Assembly: GCA_943846595.1 (NCBI GenBank)
Contig: OX044355.1
Span: 1,788,199 to 1,852,198 of the forward strand
Source of the DNA: an uncultured Polaribacter sp.
GTDB lineage: Bacteria; Bacteroidota; Bacteroidia; Flavobacteriales; Flavobacteriaceae
Direction: 5' to 3'
DNA: 64,000 bases
Position 1 is the first letter of the stretch; every line of letters starts with the position of its first letter. Positions 35,799-41,596 of the stretch are shown here, piece by piece. Below the pieces are notes generated by a model. That model was not told the origin of the DNA. It did no database searches and saw nothing but the letters and a program-made list of their open reading frames with translations. Both the position numbers and the translations under genes were made by a program.

Positions 35799-36068
35799 TT
35801 AAAATTTAAACTTTTTATTATATTTCTAATTCGTTTTAGTGGGACGATTTTACTACAACGATTGTAAGTGAACAGACTTTTTTATATAAACGGTTTTCAC
35901 CAATTCACCAATTTTAATTACTCTTCCAAATAAACATAAAAATTTACAGAAATTTTCTTTTTGTCCTATTTAGAACATAATATTTTTTTTTAGCAAACTA
36001 TTATCATACTTTAATAAATATTTCATAAATTTAAGTCCCCTATTTATTGATTTTTAAAATAGTAAAAA

Positions 36069-37042
36069 ATGTTTTGTAAAAAAAATAGGCGGAACCCAAA
36101 AATACTCCTAGGTATTTTATTTTTAATATTTCATATTCAATTGTTTAGTCAAACAATAACAGTAAATGACACAGAGAATACCCCAGAAGAACTTGTTGAT
36201 TTATTAATTGGAAATAATTGTATAACAAGATCAAAGGAAATGCTGATTGTTTTGTAGAAGATCAGTTTCAAATAACTGTAAATCCATTAGTTCATTTAGA
36301 AATAAAAGGCGGTGTTATTTGTGTAGATGCTGCAACAGGATTGACAACAGACTCCTTTTTATTAGAATCTAAATTAGATGAAGATGAATTTACAGTGAAT
36401 TGGTATTTCAATGATGAACTTGTAGGAACAGGACCTAACTACCTTGCAACTAAAGCAGGAGAATATAGAGTAGAAACTGTAAAGTTAACAGAAGATAATG
36501 GTGAAGATTGTAATTACGCACCCACAATAGTAGTCGTAGAAGCTTCCACACCAAAATTTGAAATTCGTTTTCTAACAAAAGATTTTGTTGATAAATACGC
36601 AATAAAAGTACATACAATAGAACAAGGGCTCGGAGAATATCTATACGCAATAGATAATAGCCCTTTTCAAACTTCCAATCTATTCGAAAACGTGATTCCA
36701 GGCGAATACACCATCACAATAAAAGATCTTTCAGGAATATGTTCTGATTTCACATTGAATTTTATTGCGATAAAGTACCCTAAATTTTTCACTCCAAATA
36801 ATGATGGAAAAAATGATACTTGGAATATTACAGACCTAAAGAATGATCCAAATGCAATTATAAAAATATTTACTCGGTTTGGAAATTTGATTACAACTAT
36901 AAAACCAAACGGAATTGGATGGGATGGCAAAAACAAGAAGGGTCTTCCAGTTCACTCAAATGATTATTGGTTTTTGATATCCTACACGAAAAATGGAGAA
37001 ATTAAAACCTATAGAAATCATTTTTCATTACTAAGAAAATAA
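36069..37042 (+). pseudogene. Internally deleted T9SS type-B (CHU_C tail) surface protein; 5' end fused out of frame to 3' end
   Basis: ORF1 = signal peptide + QTITVNDTENTPEELVDLLIGNNC; ORF2 in another frame from 36218 ends with KYPKFFTPNNDGKNDTWNI...NDYWF...HFSLLRK. Confidence 0.8.
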
Positions 37043-37102
37043 TTTTTTTTTATGCATTCATAGTTTATCAATTTCCATAAATTTGCATTTCAATATTCAA
37101 CA

Positions 37103-37471
37103 ATGCTCGTAAAAAGAATTTTTTATTATTTAGTGGGATTATCTCTAGGATCTGTTGCCGTTTATTTTTTTTGGCAAAAGAAAAATGCTTCTTTTGACTA
37201 CGGAATGGATGCCAGAACACTTAAAACACTTCGTATTAGAGAGCGTTTGTTTTCCGAACAAGCAAAACTTTCTATGCAACAACATCGCATTGATACCGCA
37301 ATGATTTCTACCATTTTGTATTTAGGGGATGTTGACTTTGGGAAAAGTGATCAACGAAAAGAACCCTGTGGAGAATACTACATTACTGGAACCGAAGCAT
37401 TAGAAAACATTCACCTATTGGTAAAACGTTGCGATTCTACTGCTACCATTGAAAAAGTAATGATCCACTAA
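37103..37471 (+). CDS. DUF4258-like flavobacterial protein
   Basis: N-terminal TM YYLVGLSLG..VYFFW, RTLKTLR, GDVDFGKS, PCGEYYI. Confidence 0.7.
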   Translation: MLVKRIFYYLVGLSLGSVAVYFFWQKKNASFDYGMDARTLKTLRIRERLFSEQAKLSMQQHRIDTAMISTILYLGDVDFGKSDQRKEPCGEYYITGTEALENIHLLVKRCDSTATIEKVMIH

Positions 37472-38058
37472 GATTTCTTGTACCGATCGTTTAAGCCTTC
37501 CCCAGAAAGAATTAACGGAATAATTTTCTCGAGTCTTTTCACTTTTGTTTCCACTCTTTTTGCCGCTGCTATATACGCAGCAAATTCATGCTGTTTGCTT
37601 TTAGAGAAACGATTAAAACCAGCCTCTAGTTGTTTGTCTGATGACAACCGCTGCATCAATTCTAAAGGAATTATCAAGGGTTTCGTATTTCTAGTAAACT
37701 TTACCTCATTCCCATTTTCTATGTGAGCCATTGTCTCTAAAACATATTCTTTAATCAAAAGAAGATCAATTTCATCCATGGAATAAAATCGCCATTGCCT
37801 CATGGCTTTGGTTTTGCCTTCTTGCGCGTTGATAAATTTTTTTTGTCTATCTTTTAAGAGTACTCCTTGAAAAAACCACAAACCGCAATACTTTTTGAAA
37901 GCAGCCAAACCTACAATATTCTTTCCTTTAAAAACATAGGTGGGTGCCCCCCATTTTATCGTTTCTTCTAAAGGTAAACCCTTAAAAACAGAACGCAGAA
38001 GGGCTAACTCTTCTTTCCAAACTACTTTCTTATTGATATAAATTTCAACGGGTGTCAT
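37468..38058 (-). CDS. YdeI/OmpD-associated (DUF1801) family protein
   Basis: EETIKWGAPTY, GLWFFQGVLLKD, AMRQWRF, AKRVETKVKRLEK. Confidence 0.88.
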   Translation of the reverse strand: MTPVEIYINKKVVWKEELALLRSVFKGLPLEETIKWGAPTYVFKGKNIVGLAAFKKYCGLWFFQGVLLKDRQKKFINAQEGKTKAMRQWRFYSMDEIDLLLIKEYVLETMAHIENGNEVKFTRNTKPLIIPLELMQRLSSDKQLEAGFNRFSKSKQHEFAAYIAAAKRVETKVKRLEKIIPLILSGEGLNDRYKKS

Positions 38059-38735
38059 TCATTATTTTTTAAATTTTGATGATAATAGGCCTCAATCTTA
38101 TCCACATTTTTAATGGTTGTTTTCACCCAGTTAAAATATAACATTTGTTTTTCTTCGTTGGACAACTTCCAATCAACCTCCGAATTTCTCAATTTTGAAG
38201 TCACTTCTTGTAAAATAATCGCAGCAGCCACAGAGATGTTTAAACTCTCTGTAAAACCTACCATTGGAATTTTCAAAAAGCCATCTGCATTTTCAGTTAC
38301 CGTTTCCGAAACCCCTTCTGCCTCTACTCCAAATACAAAGGCGGACTTTTTGGTAACATCAAAATCTTGCAATAAACAGGAATCATTGTGCGGTGTGGTG
38401 GCGATAATCTGATAGCCCTTTTCTTTTAAAGAAGCCAAGCAGCTTTTTGTATTATCCCTATCATCGCGATAGCGATTGTAGATAAGCCATTTTTGAGAAC
38501 CTTTCGCGACGTGTCTCGAAATCTTATTGTTGTATTTGTTCTCAATTGCATGCACATCTTGAATCCCAAAAATATCGCAGGTTCTTACCACAGCACTCGC
38601 ATTGTGAGGCTGGAAAATGTCTTCCAAAACAACCGTAAAATGTCGGGTTCTGTCCTCTAAAACCTTCTTAAATAACGCTTTTCTCTTCTCCGTTAAATAG
38701 CCTTCCAAATAAGCAAGTAGTTTTTGATCCATCAT
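38055..38735 (-). CDS. TrmH/SpoU family RNA methyltransferase
   Basis: PHNASAVVRTCD, FVFGVEAEG, IPMVGFTESLNISVAA. Confidence 0.92.
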   Translation of the reverse strand: MMDQKLLAYLEGYLTEKRKALFKKVLEDRTRHFTVVLEDIFQPHNASAVVRTCDIFGIQDVHAIENKYNNKISRHVAKGSQKWLIYNRYRDDRDNTKSCLASLKEKGYQIIATTPHNDSCLLQDFDVTKKSAFVFGVEAEGVSETVTENADGFLKIPMVGFTESLNISVAAAIILQEVTSKLRNSEVDWKLSNEEKQMLYFNWVKTTIKNVDKIEAYYHQNLKNNE

Positions 38736-38984
38736 AAAAACAAACTTAAATATAAATATGCTTACTCTTATATAAAAACTAAATTTCTTATTTCGAACCT
38801 TATATTAAAAAATACTATTTTTATAATAGTTTTGTACGCTCCCCTATAAAAACCAATTGTTTAGAAGTATAAGAATTAAAGAAAGTTATTTGTTAGAGGA
38901 AAATGTTTATGATTTGTTTACTATTAAAAAAAAAATAATTTTGTAAATGTATGTTAACTATTTTGTAAACTTAAAAAAAATGAA

Positions 38985-39680
38985 ATGAAAAATTTATCAA
39001 AAATAGTCTTAGTTATATTTATGAACTTAACATTCTTTACTTGTACTAATAGTGAAAATTTAAGCAGTAATGAAACTCAAGAAATTCAACCGGAGCAATT
39101 TGGAAAATTACACAATGAAGCTATTTTGGAATTATTAAATCATCCTGATTATGAATCAGATAATAGTCCTCAAGATAACATGGTTTTGATGCATAAAATA
39201 ATGTCAGAAAAATATCCTGAGTACTTCAGCAAAAAATTAGAGATAAAAAATATGCCAAAAATATTTTTGGCGATTCTAAAAAAAATGATATAAGTTTTAA
39301 AAAATTAATTGTGATTTTAAAAAAAATCAGATGTTATAGATAAAAATTTAAAAGAATTTATTTCAAATCAAAGACATGAAGAATTCAATAAATATGATTA
39401 TAGTTTAATTGATAAAGATCAGTTGATCGCGTTTAATTCTGTCAAAGAGCATTCTAAGCTTTTATGGACAGAACAGGTTTCAAACGATTTAATTATTAAA
39501 CGAAATAAAAGGCAAACAAGAGATTGTGATGCTACTCAGCAAGTTATATTTGCTGATGCTACCGCATCTTTATTGTTTTGGTGGAACCCACCCGCTTCAA
39601 TTATAGCAGGTGCAGCTGCTTCTCTTCTAGTCAGAGAAGATCAAATACAAAATTATGACGGTGGTTGCGCTACAAATTAA
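38985..39680 (+). pseudogene. Frameshifted lipoprotein with hydrophobic C-terminal peptide (putative toxin precursor)
   Basis: Lipobox FFTC; ORFs 38985-39293 and 39321-39680 share a frame and are bridged by an open alternative frame between poly-A runs at 39245-39250 and 39319-39326. Confidence 0.7.
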
Positions 39681-39686
39681 AAATTT

Positions 39687-40106
39687 ATGGATAGGATATT
39701 AAAAATAAAAAGACAAAATAGATTTTATGACTCTTTAATAAAATATGACATTTACCTCAATAATAATAATAAAATTAAAATCTCTAATAATGAAGTTTTA
39801 GAATTAAAGTTAGAAAAAGGTGAAAATATATTATTCGTTAAATTTTGGCATTTAAAATCGAATACACTACTCTTAGAAGGTAATAAAAATCGTTTGGTGG
39901 ATATAAAAAATTATGTAACTAATAACCAGTTTTATGTTTATTTGTTTTTAATCGTAGTGGGAATTTATTTTTCATTTTTTAATGTCTCAGAGTATTTTTT
40001 TATCAATTTCATAATCAAATTTGTTGGTTTTTATATTTTTTCAATACCTATAGTTTCTTTAACTTTCAATTCAAAAAGAAACATATTAATTGAAGAATTA
40101 AATTGA
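39687..40106 (+). CDS. Small membrane protein (putative immunity/partner protein)
   Basis: Soluble beta-rich N-terminus then two TM helices; starts 6 nt after the upstream stop. Confidence 0.7.
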   Translation: MDRILKIKRQNRFYDSLIKYDIYLNNNNKIKISNNEVLELKLEKGENILFVKFWHLKSNTLLLEGNKNRLVDIKNYVTNNQFYVYLFLIVVGIYFSFFNVSEYFFINFIIKFVGFYIFSIPIVSLTFNSKRNILIEELN

Positions 40107-40226
40107 AAGTAGGTAAACCTTCTCTATACTTTGTAAACAAAAATTATATATTTTAGTCTACCACAGCACAAACTTTAATACAAATCAGATTTATTTGTAA
40201 TAAAAAATTTATACGTATTAAAAATA

Positions 40227-40258
40227 AAATGACCGCATCAAAACTTGAGCGGTCATTT
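40227..40258. terminator. Intrinsic terminator after DEAD-box genes
   Basis: AAATGACCGC...GCGGTCATTT. Confidence 0.7.
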
Positions 40259-40282
40259 ATATGCAATCGATGGTAAAAGAGG

Positions 40283-41596
40283 TTAGCTCAATGTTACGCG
40301 TACTTTCTTCTTTTTCAAGCGTGTATTATTTAATTTTTCAATCAAATCATTAGCAATTGTTAAAGGAACTGCAACAAATGCACAATCCTGTTTTAATTCG
40401 ATATTTCCCAATTGATCTTTTGTAATATTTCCCTGCTTAAAAAAGAGTCCAGCAATATCTCCTTTCGATATTTTATCTTTTCTACCTCCAGAAATAAACA
40501 AGGTTTCCCAATACTGAGATTTGCGAGGAGCTCTTTTAGAAATATCTTCAATTTTCGATTTCTTAATAAAAACAGGCAAGTTTTCTTTTTCCCATTTCAA
40601 TACATAAGCGGTCCCTTTTGCGTCAACCCTAGCAGTTCTCCCATTTCTGTGCGTAAATTCTTCTGAAGCCTTGGGAAGTTCGTAATGAATGATAAATTTC
40701 AATTCAGGAATATCAATCCCTCTGGCCGCTAAATCTGTTGCAATTAAAATTTGACTGGTGCCATTTCTGAATTTAATCAAAGAACGTTCTCGATCTCTTT
40801 GTTCCATTCCACCTGAAAAACAACTGTGTGATATTTTATTTTTAGCTAAAAACGCACTTACTTTGTTGACGCTGTCTTTTAAATTACAAAAAACAATACC
40901 GGGCTGATTTCCGATATGTAAGATTAAATCCACCAAGGTTTCGGATTTGTTTTTAGCAGCAGCAATCACTGTTTTAACCTCCAATTTAGAAGCCACTTTT
41001 TTCTTCAAATAGTTGATGGTTTTCGCCTGATCTAATTTTATAAATTCTGGAACCTCAACTCCCTGTGTTGCAGAGGTTAGTATTCGCTTATTTAAAGTAG
41101 TTAATTGATTGATAATTCCCCTCATTTCATATTCAAAACCAACCTCTAATGACTTGTCAAATTCATCTAAAATTAAGGTTTTAATATGGGTTTTAGCAAA
41201 ACGTTCGTTAGCAAAATGATCTGCTATTCTACCCGGAGTTCCAATTAAAATAGCGGGTATATGCTTCAATTCAATTTTATCTTTTGACATGGGTCTCCCC
41301 CCATACACTGCATTTACCTTAAAACCTGATCCCATATTACGAACCACCTGCTCAATTTGTATTGCCAACTCTCGAGAAGGCACTAATATCAATGCCTGCA
41401 CCTCACTTGAATTCGGATCAAGTGTTTCAATAACTGGCAGTAAAAAAGCCAATGTCTTTCCAGTTCCTGTTGGAGAAAGTAATATCGTATTGGTATTTGA
41501 TGCGATTGCAGAAATTGCTTCCTCTTGCATCGAATTCAATGCATGAATGTTTAATTTTGCTAAAATATCTTGTTGCTCTTTTATTGTATTTGCCAT
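40283..41596 (-). CDS. DEAD-box RNA helicase with C-terminal DbpA-type RNA-binding domain
   Basis: SPTGTGKT, PSRELA, DEFD, ATDLAARGIDI, HRNGRTAR, GGRKDKISKGDIAG. Confidence 0.92.
   Translation of the reverse strand: MANTIKEQQDILAKLNIHALNSMQEEAISAIASNTNTILLSPTGTGKTLAFLLPVIETLDPNSSEVQALILVPSRELAIQIEQVVRNMGSGFKVNAVYGGRPMSKDKIELKHIPAILIGTPGRIADHFANERFAKTHIKTLILDEFDKSLEVGFEYEMRGIINQLTTLNKRILTSATQGVEVPEFIKLDQAKTINYLKKKVASKLEVKTVIAAAKNKSETLVDLILHIGNQPGIVFCNLKDSVNKVSAFLAKNKISHSCFSGGMEQRDRERSLIKFRNGTSQILIATDLAARGIDIPELKFIIHYELPKASEEFTHRNGRTARVDAKGTAYVLKWEKENLPVFIKKSKIEDISKRAPRKSQYWETLFISGGRKDKISKGDIAGLFFKQGNITKDQLGNIELKQDCAFVAVPLTIANDLIEKLNNTRLKKKKVRVTLS

Follow-up and report, generated by a model that had tools for sequence, protein, structure and literature searches.

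The window analysed here is a stretch of 64,000 nucleotides (nt) from an uncultured Polaribacter sp., part of a single-contig genome of 2.31 Mb, and it contains a mobile cassette of two genes, now decaying, that occurs in marine Flavobacteriia and belongs to an undescribed family. The first gene of the cassette would encode a predicted lipoprotein if mended, and the second encodes a small membrane protein. In this genome the lipoprotein gene is inactivated, with a truncated product of 102 amino acids (aa), and the partner gene is still intact; the window copy is a pseudogene without present function. Based on gene context, the cassette may be read as a membrane-active lipoprotein toxin and its immunity protein, here in decay, a reading that is plausible rather than probable.

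Translation of the lipoprotein gene in three frames gives a signal peptide ending in FFTC, an acidic and polar linker, a body that opens with GKLHNEAIL, the basic stretch KRNKRQTR and a tail of 52 aa with an NPP turn. An earlier note on this DNA had described the same parts, including the two cysteines that flank the tail (codons at 39525-39527 and 39666-39668), and all are present in the translation; its reconstruction of a single 231-aa protein is borne out by intact orthologues of exactly this length at 94% identity. The open reading frame (ORF) of the window itself ends after 102 aa, a short distance beyond the first of two single-nucleotide indels in runs of A. The original frame continues for about 25 codons in frame +2 and then returns to frame 0, in which it runs through the basic stretch and the tail to a stop at 39678-39680. 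In a DNA alignment with five contigs carrying intact orthologues the window shows 95.6% identity, and the orthologues have seven A residues at both run sites.

Runs of A are where sequencing errors typically fall, and as both indels lie in such runs they could be taken for homopolymer errors of this assembly in a gene that is intact in the organism. This is hardly credible, as short-read assemblies from four independent marine studies (DNA runs X1 of 2014, X2 of 2017 and X7 of 2020, and the metatranscriptome X11 of 2022) reproduce 1.5-1.8 kb of the window, both A-runs included, without a single difference or gap, and all sampled 31-mers (100%) are found in 13 public runs, by which the reading is largely refuted. 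Recovery of the identical broken sequence in independent studies shows that it is not an assembly error and that the OFF/OFF allele is a stable natural haplotype. The position of both breaks in homopolymer runs, each one base from the ON state, together with the presence of the locus in metatranscriptome contigs, is also what would be seen if the gene were phase-variable rather than dead, with poly-A slippage toggling its expression. However, reactivation would require the reversal of two independent slips (at the A6 and the A8 run), the same OFF/OFF state was seen without any indel variant in four studies over eight years, although contigs may hide rare variants, and the cassette is deleted in strains of the same lineage, which is consistent with decay; phase variation is considered improbable. 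The contig from the RNA library starts at 38805 and the spacer on the promoter side (38722-38782) has zero depth in the same run, suggesting that the broken gene may still be transcribed. Rescue by transcriptional slippage was considered negligible, as it would require two separate slips, one of them at the A6 run.

The lipoprotein belongs to a family of some breadth that has so far carried no name. A word-indexed search recovered eight close clusters only, none of them named; a profile search of 1.84 billion representatives recovered 111 proteins at E <= 1e-3, of which 42 reach E <= 1e-10, and nearly all of the 111 have 210-260 aa and match over their full length. The recovery of a family by profile search and the confident prediction of its fold place the features of the protein beyond chance. 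The view of the earlier note that the family is undescribed has held up, as Pfam, NCBIfam, PADLOC and PHROG returned nothing meaningful for the window proteins and for 91 family members (0 matches in PADLOC and noise only in PHROGs), and no relative was found among solved structures. The Pfam scan of the 91 members (E <= 0.1, the 25 commonest of 58 weak families being listed) contained among the matches listed no bacteriocin family, and likewise no glycine-zipper (SlyB/Pcp/17-kDa antigen) or TraT model, although a single weak match to the latter models is possible. Profile search of the sequences in the PDB gave only noise, such as weak matches to the signal peptides of beta-lactamases, feature search of the ESM Atlas gave only clusters of Bacteroidota labeled 'hypothetical protein', and no description of the family was found in literature searches. 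There was no match by tblastn between the 94%-identical orthologue (P0005) and the 50,697 phage records of INPHARED, none between this protein or the plasmid-borne member P0012 and the plasmids of PLSDB, and none to the family in a viral contig scan. A role as spanin or holin was rejected in view of the absent phage context and the wrong architecture.

Some distant members are arranged or built differently. Tandem paralogues of 245 and 260 aa are found in L068:1501-3158, and in L059:853-3762 a 208-aa ORF separates members of 234 and 253 aa, which are interleaved with two other paralogous ORFs, lipoprotein-like and 208-209 aa in length. In two large proteins, P0094 (968 aa) and P0114 (1,800 aa), the family profile matches six separate stretches each, covering the hairpin region, and these matches may reflect repeated small-residue helices or low complexity.

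At the N-terminus the window protein has the sequence MKNLSKIVLVIFMNLTFFT-C at the end of its hydrophobic region and is predicted to be a lipoprotein processed by signal peptidase II (SPII). A lipobox-like cysteine following a hydrophobic stretch and a small residue is present in 63 of 91 aligned members, with a signal peptide that has no cysteine in another 25. In Bacteroidota, acidic residues a few positions past the +1 cysteine act as an export signal of surface lipoproteins. At least two D/E residues at +2 to +8 were found in 51 of the 63 lipobox members, and the window protein (C-TNSENLS) has one only. Export of the lipoprotein to the cell surface or to outer membrane vesicles is putative. 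The conserved blocks are YGxxHNE near the mature N-terminus, FxSVxxSSxxxW, and the hairpin IxADAxG...GP...GAxxS. The first two belong to a conserved N-terminal body of about 160 aa, in which YGxxHNE and SSxxxW are invariant. The tail, for which the earlier note had raised the question of polymorphism, is instead the best-conserved part of the family. Both of its cysteines are present in 58 of 91 members, the C-terminal one alone in 15, the N-terminal one alone in none and neither in 18, a pattern that fits a putative disulfide that is common but dispensable.

The segment that joins body and tail bears on another possibility, which was raised by the earlier note, namely that a protease cuts the precursor at the basic site and releases a disulfide-stapled, membrane-attacking peptide of 52 aa. 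A K/R-rich sequence does stand just before the first tail cysteine (about Cys181-182) in the window and in its closest orthologues, the composition of the tail is like that of small-residue-rich class II peptides, and some distant members have GxxxG-rich tails. However, the linker holding the basic stretch has the highest column entropy and the most gaps of the superfamily alignment, and the basic cluster is missing in orthologues of 50-74% identity, the sequences at this position being TRNEIQAR, TPNAAKA, EKDYLNKS and DQNSFAK; KRNKRQTR is not conserved as a cleavage site would be. In the loci examined the cassette is linked neither to a protease gene nor to a gene for a dedicated exporter, and the invariant motifs of the N-terminal body suggest more than a carrier role. 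The AlphaFold2 model of body and tail (from an eight-sequence alignment) is a single, all-helical one with a mean predicted local distance difference test score (pLDDT) of 81 and a predicted template modelling score (pTM) of 0.78, in which the tail helices, residues 183-196 and 202-224, reach a pLDDT of about 90, equal to the best-modelled parts of the body. As the tail is modelled confidently within the domain, a detachable peptide is unlikely, and the proposal as a whole is regarded as very doubtful. The single-domain confidence of the model points rather to a hairpin that is predicted to be buried and integral to one helical domain.

The predicted fold is apparently new, as nothing similar was found outside the family among solved or predicted structures. 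In VIA-align against 48,161 chains the best Z was 4.2, which is far under the noise level quoted for helical proteins, and no colicin appeared in the top rows; the AFDB clusters yielded one unnamed relative from the family only (template modelling (TM) score of 0.64), and shape search of the ESM Atlas gave TM scores of <= 0.35.

The partner ORF begins 6 nt past the stop of the lipoprotein gene, and its product has two transmembrane helices, no signal peptide and no lipobox. The earlier note had proposed to check whether a small membrane gene always follows; this holds for the core-family loci examined and fails for some distant members. In 9 of 9 core loci (P0005, P0001, P0009, P0010, P0012, P0014, P0017, P0038 and the L022 copy) an ORF of 127-141 aa with a beta-domain and two transmembrane helices lies directly 3' of the lipoprotein gene, with a gap of 6-12 nt or with the two ORFs overlapping; distant members often have one to three small downstream ORFs with two to four transmembrane helices. 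Identity of the two proteins falls in step, 93, 74, 51 and 31% for the lipoprotein corresponding to 99, 74, 63 and 32% for the partner, and the partner homologues share the motif pattern of their N-terminal domain and a C-terminal end like GYKKY. Compared to the sister lineage, the window partner gene has an in-frame insertion of AAT at 39759-39761, adding one Asn to a run of Asn.

The AlphaFold2 model of the partner (pLDDT 73) consists of a seven-stranded beta-sandwich, two transmembrane helices and a final strand. In AFDB searches with residues 1-79 or the whole length, residues 4-74 match predicted models named PEGA or DUF2846 (E 3e-6 to 3e-3), and there are full-length matches to uncharacterized clusters of the type 'beta-sandwich + 2 TM' (E 1e-6 to 1e-3, TM scores 0.55-0.63); solved structures are matched only weakly (E >= 0.04). 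The likeness to PEGA/DUF2846 proteins is one of fold in the N-terminal domain, between a predicted model and other predicted models, and the partner has no Pfam sequence match. As there is no signal peptide and basic residues are located at the cytoplasmic ends of the helices, the positive-inside rule would place the sandwich in the cytoplasm, and the protein is probably situated in the inner membrane. Prediction of a complex between the mature lipoprotein and the partner gave a score of 0.02, which is below the mark and counts neither way.

The gene pair is also carried on a circular element that is apparently a minimal mobilisable plasmid from marine Flavobacteriia. Two independent assemblies (L055:1-3606 and L056:1-3542, one of them from a Tara Oceans sample) are circular permutations of a 100% identical sequence. 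Each has a terminal repeat, of 119 nt in one and 55 nt in the other, and each closes to a circle of 3,487 bp with 27% GC. Its genes encode a winged-helix protein of 188 aa with weak likeness to RepL/Rep3, the lipoprotein P0012 (247 aa), the partner (138 aa) and a Mob_Pre relaxase (331 aa, E 8e-41). The lipoprotein/partner pair is thus the sole cargo of the plasmid, which is the strongest contextual hint that it confers a competitive or addictive trait.

On the chromosome, the cassette is a patchy and unstable possession. As noticed earlier, it is AT-rich amid housekeeping genes: GC content is 23.8% across the cassette region (38740-40280) compared to 34.3% for the whole window, and the flanks are a SpoU methylase gene on one side (38055-38735, minus strand) and a DEAD/DbpA helicase gene on the other (40283-41596, minus strand). 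The intact orthologue P0005 is represented by 34 member sequences on 27 contigs, and in marine metagenomes it occupies the same site in a sister lineage, in the order SpoU, 231-aa ORF, 138-aa ORF and helicase. In G027 and G030, the two reference species nearest to the window, the SpoU and helicase genes are 92% and 94% identical to those of the window and lie about 195 nt apart, and the site is free of the cassette; homology of the window to these empty sites ends near 38776 and restarts near 40216. In a contig of 129 nt from run X7, positions 38779 and 40219 are linked across 41 unrelated letters, suggesting that cassette-free relatives share a sample with the cassette-bearing strain.

A further state is seen in three metagenomes, where contigs with 99.6-100% identity to the window flanks have a deletion of 1,159 nt (39104-40262). 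The deletion takes the whole partner gene and the terminator-like hairpin, and it fuses the first 40 codons of the lipoprotein gene to an out-of-frame tail, giving a 69-aa ORF (P0063; L060:2208-2417, L061:260-469 and L062:175-384) overlapping the helicase gene at its end. Wild Polaribacter populations hold four natural states of the cassette, which are intact, frameshifted, deleted and absent. In comparing the window to the sister-lineage locus L015, the number of synonymous substitutions per synonymous site is 0.33-0.77 for six flanking genes, and the lipoprotein gene has 0.065 and the partner gene 0.013; values for the cassette so far below those of its flanks indicate recent exchange between otherwise well-separated lineages. 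At least three chromosomal contexts are known, these being the SpoU/helicase site, a position adjacent to a GH31 gene in G022 and a third site in a metagenome-assembled genome of Flavobacteriaceae (L022), and the GC content of the cassette is always under that of its flanks, by 4-12 points. Of 400 Bacteroidia genomes searched, 14 had a member of the family, and these are spread over 14 of 202 genera. In G003, a complete genome of Polaribacter, a partner homologue of 136 aa (E 1e-12; L086, G003:C1:288691-289086) adjoins signal-peptidase-like and WbqC-like genes, and profile search of the whole genome detected no family lipoprotein; this single case is a possible orphan immunity gene.

Taken together, the toxin/immunity reading draws on the following: the exported protein has a hydrophobic hairpin of small residues that is conserved, and it is combined with an obligatory, co-diverging adjacent membrane protein; the pair is carried on a minimal plasmid and in islets of low GC, with recent lateral exchange; and its distribution is patchy, with rapid decay and a possible orphan partner. 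In such a system, the first gene would encode a lipoprotein exported through Sec and SPII, with about 210 mature residues forming one all-helical domain that has the C-terminal hairpin as its conserved core. The second would encode an inner membrane protein with a cytoplasmic PEGA-like beta-sandwich and two transmembrane helices. The whole folded lipoprotein, not a released peptide, would insert its hydrophobic hairpin into the membrane of the target cell, and its immunity protein would protect from within the inner membrane.

Several observations weigh against this. The functional evidence consists entirely of gene context, and neither the lipoprotein nor the partner has any similarity to a known toxin or immunity protein in profile, Pfam and fold searches, Foldseek search of the PDB with the lipoprotein model giving E > 1. 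There are no secretion or processing genes near the cassette, hydrophobicity of the hairpin in the subfamily of the window is only moderate, and no membrane ORF lies 3' of the distant members L064, L067, L070, L075 and L059. Between the window and L015 the partner gene has 1 synonymous and 9 non-synonymous changes, so that purifying selection is not shown, although these are too few to separate relaxed from diversifying selection. In the deletion strains the partner has been lost along with the lipoprotein gene.

The main rival is a non-toxic envelope module, in which the Gly/Ala-zipper hairpin would be a second membrane anchor or an oligomerisation element, functioning with the inner membrane partner in envelope protection, exclusion or plasmid maintenance. 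The outer membrane lipoproteins SlyB/Pcp and TraT, the latter a surface-exclusion protein of plasmids, combine an N-terminal lipid anchor with a Gly/Ala-rich helical hairpin, and the lipobox and small-residue hairpin of the present family show a comparable architecture. Carriage on a mobilisable plasmid would suit exclusion or maintenance as well, no toxin homology was found, and a partner sandwich in the cytoplasm, as its predicted topology has it, would be unusual for an immunity protein. In contrast to SlyB/Pcp and TraT, the hairpin here is C-terminal and is modelled within a helical domain, AlphaFold2 placing it in one confident model and not as an anchor of its own, and the gene is a rare accessory one, not a core envelope gene; the lack of glycine-zipper and TraT models among the Pfam matches listed for the 91 members also speaks against this rival. 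A housekeeping-type role fits poorly with the patchiness, repeated loss and recent transfer between lineages, and the envelope module is considered rather unlikely.

If the toxin/immunity reading is retained, it can be compared to several characterized systems, to which the cassette would be analogous (BcpT/BcpI, colicins and Cdz) and homologous to none. BcpT from Phocaeicola is a 499-aa SPII lipoprotein toxin that is cut at two LTR motifs by C11 proteases, and its immunity protein BcpI is a small lipoprotein, the bcpT/bcpI operon being located on a small mobile plasmid (PMC9308784). The present cassette resembles it in comprising a Bacteroidota lipoprotein without homology to characterized toxins, here only a putative toxin, with a paired gene and a small mobile plasmid. 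It differs, going by the published description of BcpT, in that the protein has 231 aa, no LTR motif and no conserved cleavage site, and its partner, unlike BcpI, is a protein with two transmembrane helices and no lipobox. The resemblance to BcpT and to class II bacteriocins drawn by the earlier note was not recovered, no similarity having been found to either, as far as the published features of BcpT go. Class II bacteriocins are short peptides (under about 100 aa) that have a double-glycine or Sec leader and a linked ABC/C39 exporter; in contrast, the present family has a conserved N-terminal body of about 160 aa and no transporter gene in any locus examined.

Pore-forming colicins have a soluble channel domain of ten helices containing a hydrophobic helical hairpin, an adjacent gene for a small polytopic immunity protein of the inner membrane, and a small mobilisable plasmid. 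The likeness to colicins would be one of concept, as a helical domain with a hairpin, an adjacent membrane protein gene and a small plasmid recur here. There is no Pfam colicin match, the fold comparisons gave E > 1 in Foldseek and Z <= 4.2 in VIA, receptor and translocation domains are lacking, and a Sec/lipoprotein signal is present where colicins depend on release by a lysis protein. CdzC and CdzD of Caulobacter are glycine-zipper proteins of 84-86 aa that are exported by a type I system, form aggregates and remain cell-associated, with the small inner membrane protein CdzI providing immunity (PMC5380434). As in these and in class IIb GxxxG peptides, small-residue zipper helices would be the presumed membrane-active element, with a small inner membrane partner, and a toxin that stays with the cell would suit life in water; unlike Cdz, the protein is a folded lipoprotein of 231 aa with a Sec signal and no linked transporter gene. 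What is new is the previously unannotated family, its partner and the plasmid; if the toxin reading holds, the general kind of toxin/immunity system is a known one.

The features of the cassette and its islet are collected in Table 1. The GC-rich hairpin just beyond the islet is probably the terminator of the helicase gene, possibly acting in both directions. The imperfect repeat coinciding with the islet ends may be a scar of integration or recombination, or it may be due to chance in AT-rich DNA. Matches to sigma-70 promoters showed no excess over the shuffled expectation, and two candidate motifs of the Bacteroidetes type (TAnnTTTG) are located upstream of the lipoprotein gene, at 38827 and 38936.

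Table 1. Coordinates of the two-gene cassette, its inactivating changes and the surrounding islet in the window.
Feature	Position	Strand	Basis
Lipoprotein gene, frameshift-inactivated, 231 aa if mended	38985..39680	+	Three-frame translation; intact orthologues P0005 (94%) and P0001 (53% identity)
Predicted signal peptide with lipobox FFTC; Cys20 codon 39042-39044	38985..39044	+	Direct reading
A6 run, lacking 1 nt against the A7 run of intact orthologues (first frameshift)	39245..39250	+	Alignment to L015-L019
Premature TAA after the first frameshift	39291..39293	+	Direct translation
A8 run, with 1 extra nt against A7 (second frameshift, compensating, 3' of the stop)	39319..39326	+	Alignment to L015-L019
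Basic stretch KRNKRQTR in the variable linker preceding the tail; not conserved	39498..39521	+	Alignment of orthologues; column entropy and gaps
Cys-bracketed, Ala/Gly/Ser-rich predicted helical hairpin (Q-x-I-x-ADA, NPP/GP turn, AGAAAS), best-conserved block	39525..39668	+	Alignments; AlphaFold2
Partner gene, intact, 139 aa; predicted N-terminal PEGA/DUF2846-like beta-sandwich and two transmembrane helices	39687..40106	+	ORF list; AlphaFold2; AFDB fold clusters
Low-GC accessory islet with the two-gene cassette; nearest reference Polaribacter genomes without it	38780..40218	.	GC; empty-site comparison
GC-rich hairpin ATGACCGC...GCGGTCAT, just beyond the islet	40229..40256	.	Direct reading; kept at empty sites L025 and L026
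Imperfect direct repeat, 39 nt, 72% identity; right copy within the right end of the islet	38740..38778 (left copy), 40168..40206 (right copy)	+	Repeat search (family D1)

The neighbourhood of the cassette differs between lineages in other ways as well. About 1.3 kb (35799-37102) separate the alanine dehydrogenase gene from a DUF4258 gene in the window and contain an ORF of 274 aa with a TTG start and a CHU_C domain of type IX secretion. Only 133 nt lie between the same two genes in the sister lineage (L015-L018), indicating a second lineage-specific indel, and the insert is perhaps the remnant of a larger gene for a type IX cargo protein. The gene at 37468-38058 (minus strand) encodes DUF1801 together with OmdA, a Pfam domain named 'bacteriocin-protection'; the name is probably a coincidence, as the gene belongs to the conserved flank of the sister-lineage loci and not to the islet. 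In one metagenome contig (L016:5295-6597) the DEAD/DbpA helicase gene beside the cassette is broken into two ORFs, of 249 and 177 aa, by a frameshift or an assembly error of that record.

Protein toxins acting between strains are well studied in gut Bacteroidales, and marine Flavobacteriia dominate the degradation of algal blooms. To our knowledge, such toxins are almost unknown in marine Flavobacteriia. A bolder proposal, which is held tentatively and at less strength than the toxin reading itself, is that the family represents a new structural class, namely Sec/lipoprotein-exported, membrane-inserting bacteriocins formed by a helical bundle with a disulfide-stapled Gly/Ala-zipper hairpin, which would be accompanied by a new class of PEGA-plus-two-helix immunity proteins and spread among marine Flavobacteriia on mobilisable 3.5-kb plasmids and small chromosomal islets. 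If this is true, the gain, decay and loss of the cassette would mark strain-level warfare in bloom-associated Polaribacter populations. If the pair is a toxin and its immunity protein, it would offer a tractable system in which to study how strains compete in the ocean, and perhaps a new fold for membrane insertion; if the lipoprotein is not a toxin, the cassette would be a clean example of a mobile two-gene module that is worth naming.

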